Positions 28,059-33,154 of a stretch of DNA of 34,610 nt are shown here, piece after piece (position 1 is the first letter of the stretch; every line of letters starts with the position of its first letter). This stretch comes from Acidimicrobiaceae bacterium (GTDB taxonomy: Bacteria; Actinomycetota; Acidimicrobiia; Acidimicrobiales; JACDCH01). The stretch is from positions 1 to 34,610 of the forward strand of contig JBEEGD010000242.1 in assembly GCA_041166685.1 (NCBI GenBank). The letters run 5' to 3'. The position numbers and the translations under genes were made by a program. The notes under the pieces are model-generated. The model was not told the origin of the DNA. It saw only the letters and a list, made by a program, of their open reading frames with translations, and made no database searches.

Positions 28059-28964
28059 CTACTTTGCGGCAGAAGACCCGCCGGTGAGCTGGATTGCGGA
28101 CTTGATGTAGCCACCGGCGGCCCGCACCTGTGCGCTCCACGGCTCGACAATGCCGAGCAGCTCTTCGACGTCGTCGCCCAGCGCTTCGATTGCGGGTCGC
28201 GTCTGACGATCGGTGGCGCGCTCGACGGCCTCGCGCGCGGCCCGGCCTTCCTCCGTGAACTGGTGGTCCTTCAACAAACCGCGCGCTTCGAGTCGGGCCT
28301 CAGCGGCGTCGAGTTGGGCGTCGCTCCAGGCCCTGCTGCGGATGTACGTCCTCAACGGGATGCCGATGAACAACTCAGTCAGCAAGCCGATCTCGGTCGC
28401 GTCGAATCCGGCTGACGTCCACGCCGCGGTGTGGGCATCGCCGCGGAACTCGCGCAGCTGATCGCCCTGCCGCCAGAAGTTGCCGATCGGGTCGCCGGGC
28501 ATCCCCTGGGCGAGCACTCCTGAGTACAGCGGCCGGCCCTCGGGGCGGAGCGGTTCGACCGCCTTGGCGAAGAGTTCGTTGGCGCGATCGATGCCATCGG
28601 GCTTCTCGCCCAAGATGCGCTCGAGCTGCGCGACTGCACCGCGCGTCCGCGCCTCGCAGATGGTGGGCGCATTCGTCAGCGTCCAACCCTGTTGCACACA
28701 TGGCACGACGATCTCGGGGTTGAACACGGCGAAGGCCGACGCCACCAGCTCGCCGGGAACGTGGCCCAGGAGCGAGCCCCTGCTCGTGAAGTAGGCGGGG
28801 CCGTCAGGCATCGCGACGCCGTCGATCGACGCGGGACTGGCGGCGAAGCCGAGGGCTTCGTATTCCGCATGGCACTCGGGCGAGAAGTACACCTGGCCCA
28901 CAACCGGTTCGATGGCGTTGGCCAGCCGGCGCGCCCTGTCGCTCACTTCTTCGTCTCGCAGCAC
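28059..28964 (-). CDS. SCO6745-like actinobacterial conserved protein
   Basis: ARRLANAIEP...YFSPE, YFTSRGSLLG, FAVFNP, LREFRGDAH, RAWSD. GTG start 6 nt after TACCAT. Confidence 0.82.
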   Translation of the reverse strand: MLRDEEVSDRARRLANAIEPVVGQVYFSPECHAEYEALGFAASPASIDGVAMPDGPAYFTSRGSLLGHVPGELVASAFAVFNPEIVVPCVQQGWTLTNAPTICEARTRGAVAQLERILGEKPDGIDRANELFAKAVEPLRPEGRPLYSGVLAQGMPGDPIGNFWRQGDQLREFRGDAHTAAWTSAGFDATEIGLLTELFIGIPLRTYIRSRAWSDAQLDAAEARLEARGLLKDHQFTEEGRAAREAVERATDRQTRPAIEALGDDVEELLGIVEPWSAQVRAAGGYIKSAIQLTGGSSAAK

Positions 28965-28986
28965 GGCGGGATGGTATGCCGTTTCC

Positions 28987-29877
28987 ATGCGGCGGACCGC
29001 CCCGACCCTCGACGCGGTCCTCCTCGGCATCGCAGTGCTGGCAGTGTCCACGTCGGGTCCGCTGTCCAGGGAGGCTGGTGCACCCACCATGGCGGTCGCG
29101 TTGTGGCGTACCGCGCTCGGCAGCGCGGTCATCGTGCCGTTCGCGCTTCTCCGACGTCGCACCGAGCTTCAGTCGCTGCGCCGAGACCAGGTGCGCACCG
29201 CAGCCATCGGCGGCATCTTCCTCGCGTGCCACTTCGGTACCTGGATCCCGAGCCTCTCGTTCACGTCGGTCGCGTCGTCGGTGGCGCTGACCTGCACGCA
29301 GCCGGTGTGGGCCGCGCTGATGGCGCGGGTGCGCGGCGAGCACATCGCGACCGGCGCGTGGGTTGGCATCGGTGTCGCGCTCGTCGGTGCGCTGATGCTG
29401 ACGGGAATCGACTTCACCCTCTCGGGCCGAGCGTTGTTCGGCGACGGCCTCGCTCTGGCGGGTGGGGTCTTCGGCGCTGCGTACGTGACCGTGGGGGCCG
29501 ATGCGCGACGGTCGATGTCGACCACGGCGTACACGTCCGTGTGCTATCCGGTCGCGGCGATACTGCTGCTCGTGGCGTGCCTCGTCGGGCGCCAGAACCT
29601 CACGAGCTACTCGGCTCACACCTGGTGGATCCTCGTGGCCATCACCGTGGGTCCTCAGCTGCTCGGCCACTCGCTCATCAATCGAGTCCTACGCGCCATC
29701 ACTGCGACCGTGGTGTCAGTGGCCACCCTGTTCGAGATCGTCGGAGCGACGCTCATCGCGTGGTGGTGGTTCGGCGAGACGCCGTCGGGAGGTGCCTATC
29801 CAGCCGCGGTACTCATCGCGATCGGCGTCGTGCTGGTGGTGCGGACAAGTACGGCCCCCGCGCCCGCCGTCGAGTGA
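28987..29877 (+). CDS. DMT/EamA-family transporter
   Basis: About 10 TM helices; HFGTWIPSL, TSVASS, GDGLAL, PQLLGHSLIN. Confidence 0.9.
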   Translation: MRRTAPTLDAVLLGIAVLAVSTSGPLSREAGAPTMAVALWRTALGSAVIVPFALLRRRTELQSLRRDQVRTAAIGGIFLACHFGTWIPSLSFTSVASSVALTCTQPVWAALMARVRGEHIATGAWVGIGVALVGALMLTGIDFTLSGRALFGDGLALAGGVFGAAYVTVGADARRSMSTTAYTSVCYPVAAILLLVACLVGRQNLTSYSAHTWWILVAITVGPQLLGHSLINRVLRAITATVVSVATLFEIVGATLIAWWWFGETPSGGAYPAAVLIAIGVVLVVRTSTAPAPAVE

Positions 29878-29895
29878 CTGCCGTTGGCTCAGGGA

Positions 29896-30259
29896 GTGTG
29901 CGGGGGCCGCAGAACCTTTCGGCTTCGCTCGCGGGCTACGTCTTCGCCGCAAGAACCTGCGGCCCCCGCACACGGGTTTGGCCACCAATGTTTTAGGGGG
30001 TGGTGCCGACCTCGGCGCGTTGAGCGCCGAGCCCGGCCGCCTCATCACACCCCGACGGCGCGAGGCGCGGTTTTCGTTCGACGAAGACGGCTCAGCCCCA
30101 CGCGTTCTTTGACGGCGCGCAGCGGTCGGTTTCGGTGCTCAATGCGCCGGAACCGACATCACACTCAAAAAGAGAATGATCAAACCCGGGGGAGGGTGGC
30201 CGCACGTTCATCGGCGGAGACGAGCTTGCGAGCGCAGCCGAGGGTTGTGCGGTCGCCCT
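29896..30259. repeat. Non-coding element of two diverged, inverted ~140-nt structured arms (29896-30040 and 30122-30259)
   Basis: The arms align as reverse complements and each forms the same three hairpins with compensatory substitutions; see findings. Confidence 0.8.
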
Positions 30260-30288
30260 GGACGGACGTGAGCTCGCCGTTACGGTTG

Positions 30289-30471
30289 TCAGGCGACGGG
30301 GACGGCGATGTCGGTGCGCAGGACCTCGAGCACCTGGACATGGCTTCCGAACCGCTCGCGGCCGGTGTGCAGTGCTGTCCGCTCCGCGGTCAGCGCATCA
30401 GCGGCCTCGACTTCGATGGCGGCAATCCGTCCCGAAGGCAACACATCTACGACGCACAAGTAGGTCTTCAT
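30289..30471 (-). CDS. Small hypothetical protein (60 aa)
   Basis: MKTYLCVVDVLPSGRIAAIEVEAADALTAERTALHTGRERFG...; beta-beta-alpha-beta-like pattern, purine-rich upstream region, own sigma-28-like promoter. Confidence 0.55.
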   Translation of the reverse strand: MKTYLCVVDVLPSGRIAAIEVEAADALTAERTALHTGRERFGSHVQVLEVLRTDIAVPVA

Positions 30472-30489
30472 CGCCCCGTTTCCGTCCCT

Positions 30490-33072
30490 TCAACTCGCTT
30501 CAAGGATCGGCCTTGCCGCCGAAGACCTTGAGGGGGCAATTCGGACTACCGGCTCCGCCGCGGGCTGCCCGAAGAAGAATCCTTGAGCCTGGTCGCAGCC
30601 GAGCTCTCGCAGTCGATCGGCTTGCGCCGGCTGCTCGACGCCCTCGGCGACTGTCGTGACCCGCAGCACCTGGGCGAGGTGCAGGATCGCTTTCACGAAG
30701 CTCTCGCCTTCCAGGTCGACCGCAACGTTGTCGATGAACGACTTGTCGATCTTCAGGACGTCGACGGGGAAGCTCCGCAGGTAGCTCAGCGACGAGTAGC
30801 CGGTGCCGAAGTCGTCCAGAGCAATGCGGACACCCAACGCCCTCAGGGCGTTCAGTTGGCGGACAGCGAGGGCCGTGTCCTCCATGAGGACGCTCTCGGT
30901 GATCTCGAGCGTCAACTGGCGGGCTTCGATGCCGCTATGGCCGACGATGTCGGTCACCACGGCGACGAAGCTCGGATCGAACAGCTGGCGAGCCGAGATG
31001 TTGACGCTCATCTCGATCGGCTTTCCGTCCGGACCGGGCTGCCAGCGTGCGGCGGCCGCGCACGCCTCCTGCAACACCCAAGCGCCGATCGGGATGATGA
31101 GCCCCGTGTCCTCGGCCGTGGGTACGAACTCCATCGGCGCGACAAGTCCACGAGTGGGGTGCTGCCACCGCACGAGCGCCTCAACGCCGGCGACCTGGCC
31201 AGTCCCGAGGGCAACGAGAGGTTGGTAGTGCAGGACCAGCTCGCGTCGATCGATCGCCGTTCGCAGTGCAGCCTCGAGCTCGAGACGAGCGAGGGCGGCG
31301 TCATGCATTCCTCGCTCGAACACCCGCCAGGAGCCGGCGCCACTGGATTTTGCCGCGTACATCGCCGCGTCCGCGTTCCGGATCAACTCGTCGGCCGTCG
31401 TCGAGCCCTCACGATGAACCAGGATGCCGACGCTTGCCCGAATCGCGACATCTCGCCCGGAGAGCCGGAAGGGCGCGCTGAGCTCGTCGATGATCCTGTT
31501 GGCAAGGCCTGTGGCTTCCGAGACACTGGCCACGTCTTCGACGAGGATGACGAATTCGTCGCCCCCGAGCCGCGCTGCAGTGTCGCCCGGTTGCAGGCAG
31601 CGCAAGATGCGCTCGCCTACTGCGACGAGCAGCTCATCACCGGTGCTGTGCCCGAGGCTGTCGTTGATCGTCTTGAAACGATCAAGGTCGAGCAGGAGGA
31701 TGGCGATGCCGCGTCCGCGATGGCGGGGCACGGTGAGCGCGTGCTCGACGCGGTCAGTGAAGAGCGGCCGGTTGGCCAGGCTCGTCAATGGGTCGTGGAA
31801 CGCCTGGTGACGTAGCTGTTCTTCGAGCGCGTTCTGGTCGGTCACGTCGTGGACCGCGACCAGCACGGCGTCGCGACCGGCGAAGGTCAACCGATGGGAG
31901 GTGATGTCGACATCGATGAGCCGTCCGTCCTTCAACTGGTGTCGCCATACACCAGCCATCTCGAGTGCCGGCCGAGCCTCTTCAAGTGCCAACAGGAGTG
32001 ATGGCACGTCCTCGGCCGGCCGGATGTCGGTGATGGTCTTCGACAGGAACTCGTCGCGCGTGTATCCGTAGTGCCTGACCGCGGCGTCGTTGACTTCGAG
32101 GAACTCGAGTGTCGCCAGGTCGTAGACCCACATCGGGCGGGGGTTGGCGGCAAAGAGCATGCGGAAGCTGGATTCGCTGTCGGCCAGCGCGGTGGCCGCT
32201 CGTCGTTGGTCCGTGATGTCGTGGCTGTTGCACACGAACCCATTGACGCTTGGCTCGTGGAGCAGACTGCGGATCGCTGTCGAGCACCAGCGCCAACTGC
32301 CGTCGACACGACGGACGCGAACCTCGAGGCGGACGATCGAATCGGGCTGCTCGCGGAGGTGAGCCATGCCTTCGGCGAGCACGCGACGATCGTCAGGATG
32401 GACGCGATCGGCGGCGTAGGTGCCGACTCGCTCGTCGGGCCGGTAGCCGAGAACGTCGGTGATGGGCGGACTCTCGTACGTGATGACGCCGTCCTCTCGA
32501 ACAACCGTGATCACATCGGCCGCGTGGCCCACCAACGCGCGGAATCGCGCTTCGCTGGAACGGACTTGTTGTTCCGACGCTCGCACTCGGCTGGACACCC
32601 ACGCCACGGTCTCGCCCATCAGCAAGATCGTTGGGACCGCGTACGCCGTCGATTCCAGGCCCGGTGAACCGTGACCCCCGACGATGACGAGAGGAGCGAG
32701 ATAGGTGAGCGTCAGCAGCGGCGCGAACCGGATCGACATTCCGGGGCGGTGACCAAGGCCGAGCCAGATGAAGATGACCATGTAGAAGAGGCCGTAGCGG
32801 AAGCCGTCGGCGTGTGTGGCCACGTTGTGGGCCACCACGCAGACCAGGGCAAGGGGCATCAACCAGAGGGTCGCCGAGCGCTGCCACCGCTGCCATGGGA
32901 GCAGGCCGATGACGACCCCGCATCCGAGCGCCAGGACGCCCACGCCTTCGACAGCGAGCGCACTCGATCCCGGCGAGGGAGGAAGGAACGCGGCCCCGGT
33001 GACTACGAGCGCGCCGCAGAGCAGGAACAACGCACTCGACAGTCGCCCGAGCGCCCTCGGCGAAAGAAACAC
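30490..33072 (-). CDS. Membrane PAS-PAS-GGDEF-EAL diguanylate cyclase/phosphodiesterase
   Basis: N-terminal TMs, two PAS/PAC domains, HDPLTSLANR, RLGGDEF, EALVRW, DDFGTGYSS, AEGVE. GTG 33072 preferred as start (track start is 33129). Confidence 0.95.
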   Translation of the reverse strand: MFLSPRALGRLSSALFLLCGALVVTGAAFLPPSPGSSALAVEGVGVLALGCGVVIGLLPWQRWQRSATLWLMPLALVCVVAHNVATHADGFRYGLFYMVIFIWLGLGHRPGMSIRFAPLLTLTYLAPLVIVGGHGSPGLESTAYAVPTILLMGETVAWVSSRVRASEQQVRSSEARFRALVGHAADVITVVREDGVITYESPPITDVLGYRPDERVGTYAADRVHPDDRRVLAEGMAHLREQPDSIVRLEVRVRRVDGSWRWCSTAIRSLLHEPSVNGFVCNSHDITDQRRAATALADSESSFRMLFAANPRPMWVYDLATLEFLEVNDAAVRHYGYTRDEFLSKTITDIRPAEDVPSLLLALEEARPALEMAGVWRHQLKDGRLIDVDITSHRLTFAGRDAVLVAVHDVTDQNALEEQLRHQAFHDPLTSLANRPLFTDRVEHALTVPRHRGRGIAILLLDLDRFKTINDSLGHSTGDELLVAVGERILRCLQPGDTAARLGGDEFVILVEDVASVSEATGLANRIIDELSAPFRLSGRDVAIRASVGILVHREGSTTADELIRNADAAMYAAKSSGAGSWRVFERGMHDAALARLELEAALRTAIDRRELVLHYQPLVALGTGQVAGVEALVRWQHPTRGLVAPMEFVPTAEDTGLIIPIGAWVLQEACAAAARWQPGPDGKPIEMSVNISARQLFDPSFVAVVTDIVGHSGIEARQLTLEITESVLMEDTALAVRQLNALRALGVRIALDDFGTGYSSLSYLRSFPVDVLKIDKSFIDNVAVDLEGESFVKAILHLAQVLRVTTVAEGVEQPAQADRLRELGCDQAQGFFFGQPAAEPVVRIAPSRSSAARPILEAS
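30504..30532 (-). promoter_or_regulatory. Putative sigma-28/WhiG-type promoter inside the GGDEF-EAL 3' end
   Basis: Minus strand CTCAAG-N15-GCCGATCC, about 30 nt upstream of ATG 30471. Confidence 0.55.
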
Positions 33073-33154
33073 TTCGATCTCTCTACATCGGTCTATCGAC
33101 CAGACGAAATGACCCTGTTCACGCGCCACTTTCGATGATTATCGTCGTCCACCG

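Follow-up and report, generated by a model that had tools for sequence, protein, structure and literature searches.

Introduction

Bacterial miniature inverted-repeat transposable elements (MITEs) and long palindromic intergenic repeats are represented by families such as Correia/NEMIS, ERIC, RUP and Nezha. Palindromic repeats of small size are commonly regarded as short hairpins recognised by a known transposase. The present work deals with a non-coding element whose ends are 140-210 nt long, when its relatives are included, and contain several helices. It is located at positions 29880-30288 of a DNA stretch of 34,610 nucleotides (the window) that corresponds to contig JBEEGD010000242.1 of an Acidimicrobiaceae bacterium (assembly GCA_041166685.1). 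Among the closest described systems are the head-to-head dimers of repetitive extragenic palindromic (REP) sequences and the REP doublets forming hairpins (REPINs). The choice of REPINs between one hairpin and a 'clover' fold is discussed in passages of PMC3116915, and REP dimers lying no more than 20 bp from the 3' end of either neighbouring open reading frame (ORF) are mentioned in the corresponding section of PMC3733652. With moderate confidence, the element of the window is considered to belong, as one copy, to a family of mobile foldback elements that are small, non-coding and of the MITE/REPIN kind.

Structured single strands have been described in other contexts as well. C-GNA-G triloops are reported, in the relevant part of PMC13037366, from single-stranded DNA signals such as the phage G4 origin, the ssiA and ssiB signals of RSF1010 and the hairpin promoters of phage N4, and the 3' overhangs of Streptomyces telomeres contain, according to a portion of PMC4513846, GCA loops closed by sheared G:A pairs. 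At the level of abstracts, the literature on palindromic intergenic repeats of Acidimicrobiia provided no description of the element analysed here. An earlier note on this DNA, made from the sequence alone, had drawn attention to two back-to-back structured arms at positions 29896-30259, and several of its claims are considered below together with the results that bear on them.

The element is inserted between the stop codons of two convergent genes

The genome to which the window belongs (G000) was compared with those of five congeners (G001-G005) by means of a 2.5-kb BLAST query extending across the site. Orthologues of the left flanking gene, which encodes an EamA-family transporter, were found in the five congeners, and in each of them this gene is directly adjoined by the DNA of the 60-amino-acid (60-aa) ORF that faces it in the window, the element being absent. 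The gap between the BLAST matches was 6 nt in G001, G003 and G005, 15 nt in G002 and 140 nt in G004, versus 409 nt in the window. The empty site of G001, G003 and G005 reads ...GAGTGA-CTAGTTAC-TCAGGCG..., with the stop codons 8 nt apart, and homology to the window ends at the EamA stop codon and restarts at 30289. The element is an insertion between two convergent genes, into the 8 nt that separate their stop codons.

The comparison with the empty sites sets the length of the element at about 409 nt, and the extent that had been flagged earlier was thus too narrow. The left end of the element, TGCCGTTGG, is similar to a terminus of the family in G002, TCGCCGTCGG, and the right terminus of the G000 copy is degenerate. 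For annotation, the 400-nt gap between the neighbouring genes has to be read as an insertion; it is no conserved regulatory region belonging to the EamA or GGDEF-EAL genes. Contigs from four soil DNA runs also cover the site: one X1 contig matches positions 29891-30328 without differences and one X4 contig crosses the left junction. One X4 contig connects 29843 with 30289 and skips 445 nt; being a single contig with 85% likeness, it is a possible empty-site relative and was not counted. A coding explanation of the element was discarded because single-base indels separate the two arms in the arm-arm alignment and the ORF that crosses the element (29884-30531) had no Pfam family match. A tRNA/tmRNA scan gave no gene of either type.

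The empty site (about 2440-2530 of L046 in G005, L047 in G003 and L042 in G001) is a 16-bp near-palindrome, GAGTGACTAGTTACTC, which corresponds to positions 29871-29879 of the window joined to 30289 onward and contains or abuts both facing stop codons. The flanks of two copies found in G002 (C240 and C112, described below) are also mutual inverted repeats. From these junction sequences, the element may prefer palindromic stop-to-stop junctions, or it may merely survive there.

Both arms are diverged copies of one structured module

Two covariance models were used in this work, R1 being built from the two arms of the window and R2, a broader model, from eight arms. The coordinates of the element, its parts and the flanking genes are presented in Table 1.

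Table 1. Coordinates of the inserted element, its structural parts, the flanking genes and the IS110-family genes of the same genome. Positions refer to the window unless a contig is named.
Feature	Position	Strand	Basis
Whole inserted non-coding element (left arm, centre, right arm, tails)	29880..30288	none	Empty-site comparison; limits +/-5 nt
Left arm (L type)	29890..30045	-	Covariance model, 181 bits (R1), 159 bits (R2)
Left-arm long rod, 18 consecutive pairs	29896..29973	-	Inverted repeat and fold
Left-arm linker AAACCCG	29973..29979	-	Sequence; family consensus looser, CRAAMC
Left-arm hairpin 2, CCACC/GGUGG, A-rich loop	29982..30003	-	Fold
Left-arm hairpin 1, 13-14 pairs, apex GCUCAACGC, loop TCAAC	30005..30037 (stem 30005-30018/30024-30037)	-	Inverted repeat and fold
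Centre between arms	30046..30116	none	Sequence comparison; partly conserved with centre of G002 unit: CCTCMTCACAC, GAAGAC, GCGCAGCGG
Right arm (R type)	30117..30265	+	Covariance model, 164 bits (R1), 143.6 bits (R2)
Right-arm hairpin 1, 14 pairs including 2 G-U, apex GCUCAAUGC, loop TCAAT	30125..30157 (stem 30125-30138/30144-30157)	+	Inverted repeat and fold
Right-arm hairpin 2 (AUCA..CUC-AAAAA-GAG..UGAU) and linker AAACCCG (30182-30188)	30158..30188	+	Sequence, fold
Right-arm long rod, 14 consecutive pairs	30193..30259	+	Inverted repeat and fold
EamA-family transporter gene, left flank, outside element	28912..29877	+	Pfam PF00892, E 2.8e-25; TGA stop 29875-29877
60-aa ORF, right flank, outside element, facing EamA gene	30289..30471	-	No Pfam match
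PAS-GGDEF-EAL gene, next after 60-aa ORF	30490-33129	-	
IS110-family genes of G000	C88:361-807 (L177), C88:2976-3431 (L179), C235:1178-1630 (L181)		

The two arms are diverged inverted copies of one module of about 145 nt, and 102 of the 156 columns of their alignment, read outward, are identical. The left arm folds with -91.7 kcal/mol (shuffle mean -67.1, z -5.64) and the right arm with -76.3 kcal/mol (shuffle mean -58.0, z -4.94), and for neither of them was any of 200 dinucleotide shuffles as good. The architecture that had been read in the arms by eye was recovered in both of them: the 14-bp hairpins with a 5-nt TCAAY loop, the second hairpins with A-rich loops (CCACC/GGTGG and AUCA..UGAU), with which the predicted folds agree, the AAACCCG linker, which loosens in the wider family, and the long stems around a conserved core. 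In the left rod, GGUUC (29957-29953) and AGGUUC (29917-29912) form tandem G-U pairs and the motifs GCGAAG (29947-29942) and GCGAAGC (29929-29923) are present, and the right rod contains GUUC (30206-30209), GGUU (30243-30246), GCGGAG (30214-30219) and GCGCAGC (30232-30238).

Across the family, the module consists of a 13-14-bp hairpin with a GCUCAAYGC apex, a second hairpin that is variable and not alignable, a CRAAMC linker and a long GC-rich rod, whose common features are a tandem GGUU/GGUU wobble block and two C-GNA-G motifs (GCGRAG and GCGMAGC). The centre between the arms measures about 70-80 nt. In each arm, the strand that maintains the fold is the one read 5' to 3' toward the outer end of the element, with its 3' end at the terminus. 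The arms are 72% complementary over at least 50 nt, and whole-strand folding of the element gave 58-77 long-range pairs.

The fold has evolved by compensatory changes on one strand

Covariation was counted on arms aligned to the model; MAFFT alignments, in which the 3' strand of the rod is misplaced, were left unused. With six arms, 94.8% of the cells pair and 22 of the 36 pairs have changed on both sides, values that none of 500 column shuffles reached, and pairing falls to 35-43% when the partner is slid by 1-3 columns. With eight arms, 93.9% of the cells pair, again with 22 of 36 pairs changed on both sides and values beyond all 500 shuffles. In the hairpin 1 helix, 8 of 13 pairs have changed on both sides across the family.

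The preference for the outward-reading strand suggested in the earlier note was borne out by two measures. G-U cells outnumber A-C cells by 24 to 1 in six arms (13 to 1 without the two invariant wobble pairs), and the outward-reading (sense) strand is more stable than the antisense strand in the eight arms, with both RNA and DNA parameters. In the rod, GGUUC on the 5' side and AGGUU on the 3' side face each other in two G-U/U-G pairs that are kept in 8/8 and 7/8 arms. The full fold (33 of 36 pairs) is also preserved in a solo arm found in G011, a genome that belongs to another genus within the family. The constraint on the fold acts on one strand.

Compensatory changes together with conserved G-U pairs are a classic signature of RNA. 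The arms could encode small structured RNAs of a new class, transcribed outward from the centre or produced by read-through from the facing genes, the insertion being only their carrier, and such RNAs could function, for example, as 3'-end stabilisers, as antisense RNAs against the ends of the flanking genes, or as a guide or scaffold for a protein. In line with this explanation, the fully folded solo arm of G011 has the same orientation as both its flanking genes and lies directly upstream of secA, and hairpin 1 and the linker are conserved although deleted copies lack both, so that these parts may serve something besides movement. Nevertheless, no known family matched the arms: the search with Rfam 15 yielded nothing that reached a gathering threshold, either in the window or in the five related loci searched, and at E <= 10 only noise from GC-rich hairpins was obtained, the best hit being a plant miRNA model with 30 bits against a threshold of 168. 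Neither a sigma-70-type promoter nor a U-tailed terminator was detected in positions 29700-30500, and no conserved TANNNT motif was seen by eye upstream of the arms. In the paired layout, moreover, an incoming transcript would reach the antisense arm first, and C-GNA-G triloops are better known from single-stranded DNA signals, as stated in part of PMC13037366. An RNA identity of the arms is regarded as rather unlikely. Single-stranded DNA is tentatively favoured over RNA because of the GNA triloop motifs, by analogy, and the absence of a promoter signal. If the arms were RNA genes, they would represent a new class of RNAs that are themselves the cargo being moved.

Related copies occur at unrelated loci

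The element is present at one locus in G000, and no further copies were found there with R1 or nhmmer. In G002, R1 revealed a full back-to-back pair (C240) between an alpha/beta-hydrolase gene and a 108-aa ORF, and one further arm at the start of a contig. When the G002 unit was used as BLAST query, six loci in all were obtained in this genome (C240, C209, C380, C386, C112 and C347). C209 contains an L arm and the centre, cut by the contig end; C380 is a rearranged copy; C386 is internally deleted and keeps query positions 34-184 and 467-514; C112 is a mini-copy of about 165 nt with only the outer ends (query 29-84 at 96% and 461-514 at 91% identity); and C347 is a solo left end. Four of the G002 copies start with TCGCCGTCGG, and the last letters of several are CGGCGA or CGGCCG. 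The C112 mini-copy is an insertion as well: its flanks are separated by 248 nt, versus 47-101 nt in G000, G001, G003 and G005. The empty site of the C240 pair was not definable, its right flank having no synteny. In both G000 and G002 the left arm begins with GAGGCGGCCG and the right arm with GCGCAGCGGTCG, and the centres share blocks, so that the whole unit of left arm, centre and right arm is shared.

Two of the G002 loci, C386 (about 1501-1784 of L162) and C209 (1-330 of L040), have the same end flank, ...TGGAAGGAGGTCAGCGGGC, which is the end of an ABC-ATPase-like gene; beside this flank, C386 carries the outer part of an R arm and C209 carries a full L arm. The arrangement could have arisen from two strain alleles, from an inverted copy or through a second hit at one site.

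The solo arm of G011, with 169 nt, fills the interval that separates a LuxR-type regulator gene from secA; this interval measures 36 nt in G017 and 57 nt in G015. At the same site upstream of secA, G016 (C22, L148) carries an unrelated GC-rich filling of 182 nt with palindromes of its own that matched neither R1 nor R2, and the LuxR-secA intergenic site seems to collect insertions. An exact-pattern scan of metagenome contigs gave four loci, two of which, both on soil contigs, were confirmed by the model. One of them, L143, carries a complete R arm and a 5'-truncated L arm between facing ORFs, and the other, L144, an R arm. The L arm of L143 (323-506) lacks hairpin 1 and most of the centre and is a natural 5'-truncated variant.

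The single locus in G000 would fit a local inverted duplication that has decayed and has neither function nor relatives, but this explanation is refuted by the homologues present elsewhere, at unrelated loci of two other genomes and of two metagenome contigs, by the compensatory changes and by the empty sites, and is considered extremely improbable. The earlier note had proposed a non-autonomous mobile element as one alternative, the other being a divergent pair of ncRNAs, and had suggested looking for other copies and for empty sites; both were found, the element being absent from the site in the five congeners and recurring at unrelated loci in G002, G011 and the two metagenome contigs.

Six loci (that of G000, C240, C112, C347 and C380 of G002, and L143) lie between facing long ORFs, no more than tens of bases from both stop codons, and the G011 arm lies between co-directional genes and points the same way as both. 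The convergent position may reflect host tolerance instead of targeting. It would also be expected if the host had selected the element as a two-way terminator or insulator between convergent genes, its mobility being incidental: the six loci are within a few tens of nucleotides from the stops, the stop codons of the empty site, 8 nt apart, leave no room for terminators, and both strands of the rods fold strongly, with -55.8 to -94.8 kcal/mol for the antisense strand (RNA parameters). Such a role is nonetheless very unlikely, since the five congeners do without the element at this site, U tails are lacking, the asymmetry favours the strand that is absent from the transcript of each nearby gene, and the elaborate 5' domain (hairpin 1 and linker) is unneeded for a terminator.

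Distribution of the element

The results of the distribution searches are valid for the samples and incomplete genomes that were searched. With R1, three real carriers were found among 61 relatives and three among the 18 genomes of the family, and G000 was the only carrier among 151 genomes of the order. R2 recovered the same three carriers among the 18 family genomes and gave only marginal hairpin-only matches among 151 genomes of the class, none of which was accepted. The marginal model matches G016 C251, G040 C39, G005 C21, G112 and G274 were rejected because they were hairpin-only or coding. A pattern scan of genome contigs yielded 67 loci, of which the model confirmed only L087 and L107 (three arms); these two score exactly like the G002 loci and are not independent copies, and the other 65 were rejected as chance CTCGAC/CTCAAC matches in GC-rich DNA. 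None of the 17 loci obtained by the same type of scan in viral contigs was confirmed by the model, and BLAST of the element against plasmids and phages gave no match.

Mobility of the element and candidate movers

The interpretation of the window element as a mobile foldback element is carried by its insertion polymorphism, its spread over unrelated loci, the existence of deletion derivatives with the outer ends, the compensatory evolution of the fold and the strand asymmetry. The element would be moved in trans by an enzyme, and this mover would handle the ends as folded single strands, in each case the strand that has its 3' end at the terminus. By analogy, such handling may be likened to that of REPINs, IS200/IS605 ends, integron attC sites, single-strand initiation signals and Streptomyces telomere overhangs. 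A more specific proposal, made tentatively and with low confidence, is that the conserved fold is the working part: the 3' half of each strand would be a module of single-stranded DNA (or RNA), consisting of the TCAAY-loop hairpin and the rod with its GNA mini-hairpins and GGTT wobble block, that signals excision, priming or integration, and a protein-free element of 400 bp would spread through a single-stranded intermediate of either strand by borrowing a host or unlinked enzyme that is neither Y1 nor TnpB. The symmetry of the element would guarantee a functional 3' module at the end of either strand, whichever were released, as in a miniature telomere or single-strand origin.

A number of observations have to be set against the interpretation as a mobile foldback element. 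Folding of the whole 409-nt strand predicts as optimum one giant foldback of the two rods in which only the hairpins 1 are local, so the module fold needs the arms to fold separately. The alignments used for covariation were fitted to the model and the arms are related, with G000, the G002/L143/L144 group and G011 making up no more than about four independent lineages. In duplex DNA the GGTTC blocks are equally a direct repeat, and the invariant GGTTC pair could be a double-stranded binding site for a protein in the form of a direct repeat, and not a wobble helix. The breakpoints differ among the deleted G002 copies and their middles may have been lost in place, so these copies do not prove that movement requires nothing beyond the ends. 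The number of copies is very low, with one locus in G000, six in G002 and one in G011. A clear target-site duplication was not observed, the sites being near-palindromic and the ends uncertain by about 5 nt. The near-palindromic targets are made by the facing TGA stop codons, and candidate repeats of 5 bp can be read at single sites (TCAGG at 29890-29894/30289-30293, TGATC in G002 C240 and CGCGT in C112). No transposase or other mover was found, nor any copy with a gene between the arms. Genes for Y1_Tnp (PF01797) were detected in none of the 18 family genomes, whose completeness is 52-98%, while 6 of 14 control genomes scored, and the TnpB Zn-ribbon family (PF07282) was detected in none of five genomes.

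The last results also bear on the link with HUH/Y1 enzymes (IS608/RAYT) drawn in the earlier note, which was not upheld. According to this explanation, the element is REPIN-like or derived from IS200/IS605 and is moved by an HUH Y1 transposase (RAYT/TnpA) that would cut in the TCAAY loop, in its vicinity or alongside the hairpins. Its two inverted units could fold separately or as one hairpin, as outlined in passages on REPINs (PMC3116915) and REP dimers (PMC3733652), and the strand-specific fold, the lack of an obvious target-site duplication and the position between convergent genes are in keeping with it. However, apart from the negative searches for Y1 and TnpB genes, the units are 140-210 nt long and contain several helices, versus 20-40 nt in REPs, they occupy 1-6 loci versus tens to hundreds, and the ends are mutual inverted copies, unlike the left and right ends of IS200/IS605. 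A Y1 transposase is accordingly judged an improbable mover. Ends that had lost their cargo, also proposed earlier, found no counterpart among the copies, and the search for copies that flank a transposase was equally unsuccessful.

Repeats are often left unassembled in genome assemblies. In the loci read, no arm adjoins a transposase gene, the transposase families searched being Y1, TnpB and IS110. Genes of the IS110 family (DEDD) are present in G000 (three, Table 1) and G011 (five) and absent from G001, G002 and G005, and no covariance-model match was found beside those of G000 or G011. This presence pattern is too weak for IS110 to be named as the mover, and no arm lies beside an IS110-family gene.

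Other features of the surrounding region

An HTH_67-family ORF (28059-29162, minus strand) overlaps the listed EamA ORF by about 250 nt, with divergent 5' ends, and the EamA start is probably located downstream of the listed position 28912. In four soil metagenome runs, contig depth exceeded 10,000 at positions 30758-30865 of the window; this peak is the conserved core of the EAL domain, which draws contigs of many organisms, and not a feature of the genome.

Relevance of the element

If the fold were a mobility signal, the element would represent a movement of DNA as folded single strands that is undescribed in this uncultured group of soil Actinomycetota. The element is, in addition, a small and testable object for which natural deletion variants are available.

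Comparison with known systems

This element is unusual in the size of its ends and the conservation of their several helices, in its strict strand polarity and very low number of copies, and in the lack of detected Y1 or TnpB genes. The REPINs and head-to-head REP dimers of Proteobacteria (of the bacterial interspersed mosaic element type, mobilised by RAYT) are similar to it in having two inverted non-coding units and a conserved spacer, according to passages of PMC3116915 and PMC3733652. They also resemble it in that the units can fold separately or as one long hairpin and lie near the 3' ends of convergent or co-directional ORFs, solo units occur as remnants, targets are palindromic in some REP families and presence varies between relatives. 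On the other hand, the units described in those passages measure 20-40 nt and have one helix, versus 140-210 nt and three helices here, and REPINs occur at tens to thousands of loci per genome, versus one to six. Unlike REPs, the element has no GTAG head, and the CGTC inside TCGCCGTCGG does not head a REP-like stem; unlike the REP-RAYT system, it is accompanied by no Y1/RAYT gene found in the 18 genomes of its family, and it was found only in one family of soil bacteria.

With the MITEs the element shares a length below 600 bp, the absence of coding capacity, inverted ends, internally deleted derivatives, insertion polymorphism and an intergenic position. Terminal inverted repeats are seen in the G002 copies, which share TCGCCGTCGG... 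and ...CGGCGA/CGGCCG ends, and polymorphism in the empty sites of the G000 copy (five of five congeners), of C112 (four genomes) and of the G011 arm (G015 and G017). It differs from MITEs in that a parent insertion sequence sharing its ends was not detected and a target-site duplication was not established, and in that the interior of the arms is kept as a strand-specific fold with compensatory changes, which is not explained by a DDE transposase that recognises double-stranded ends.

Unlike the elements of the IS200/IS605 group, including those of the PATE type, the ends of the element are inverted copies that fold on opposite strands. Three other systems were considered and dropped: integron attC sites, as there are no RYYYAAC/GTTRRRY ends; retrons, as no reverse transcriptase is encoded nearby; and the bridge RNA of IS110, as the copies are two and inverted, with no recombinase alongside.

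As regards the phage, plasmid and telomere signals, the analogy is one of form only: no sequence similarity was found by BLAST against plasmids and phages, a context of replicon, primase or terminal protein is lacking, and, unlike telomeres and single-strand initiation signals, the element is internal to the contig, between two ordinary chromosomal genes. In form, it resembles the GNA mini-hairpin signals, as far as these are covered in PMC13037366, in having C-GNA-G/GCGNAGC motifs (GCGAAGC, GCGCAGC and GCGGAGC) in tightly packed hairpins of which one strand works. It also resembles the telomeres of Streptomyces, as depicted in part of PMC4513846, in that the folded strand has its 3' end at the terminus.

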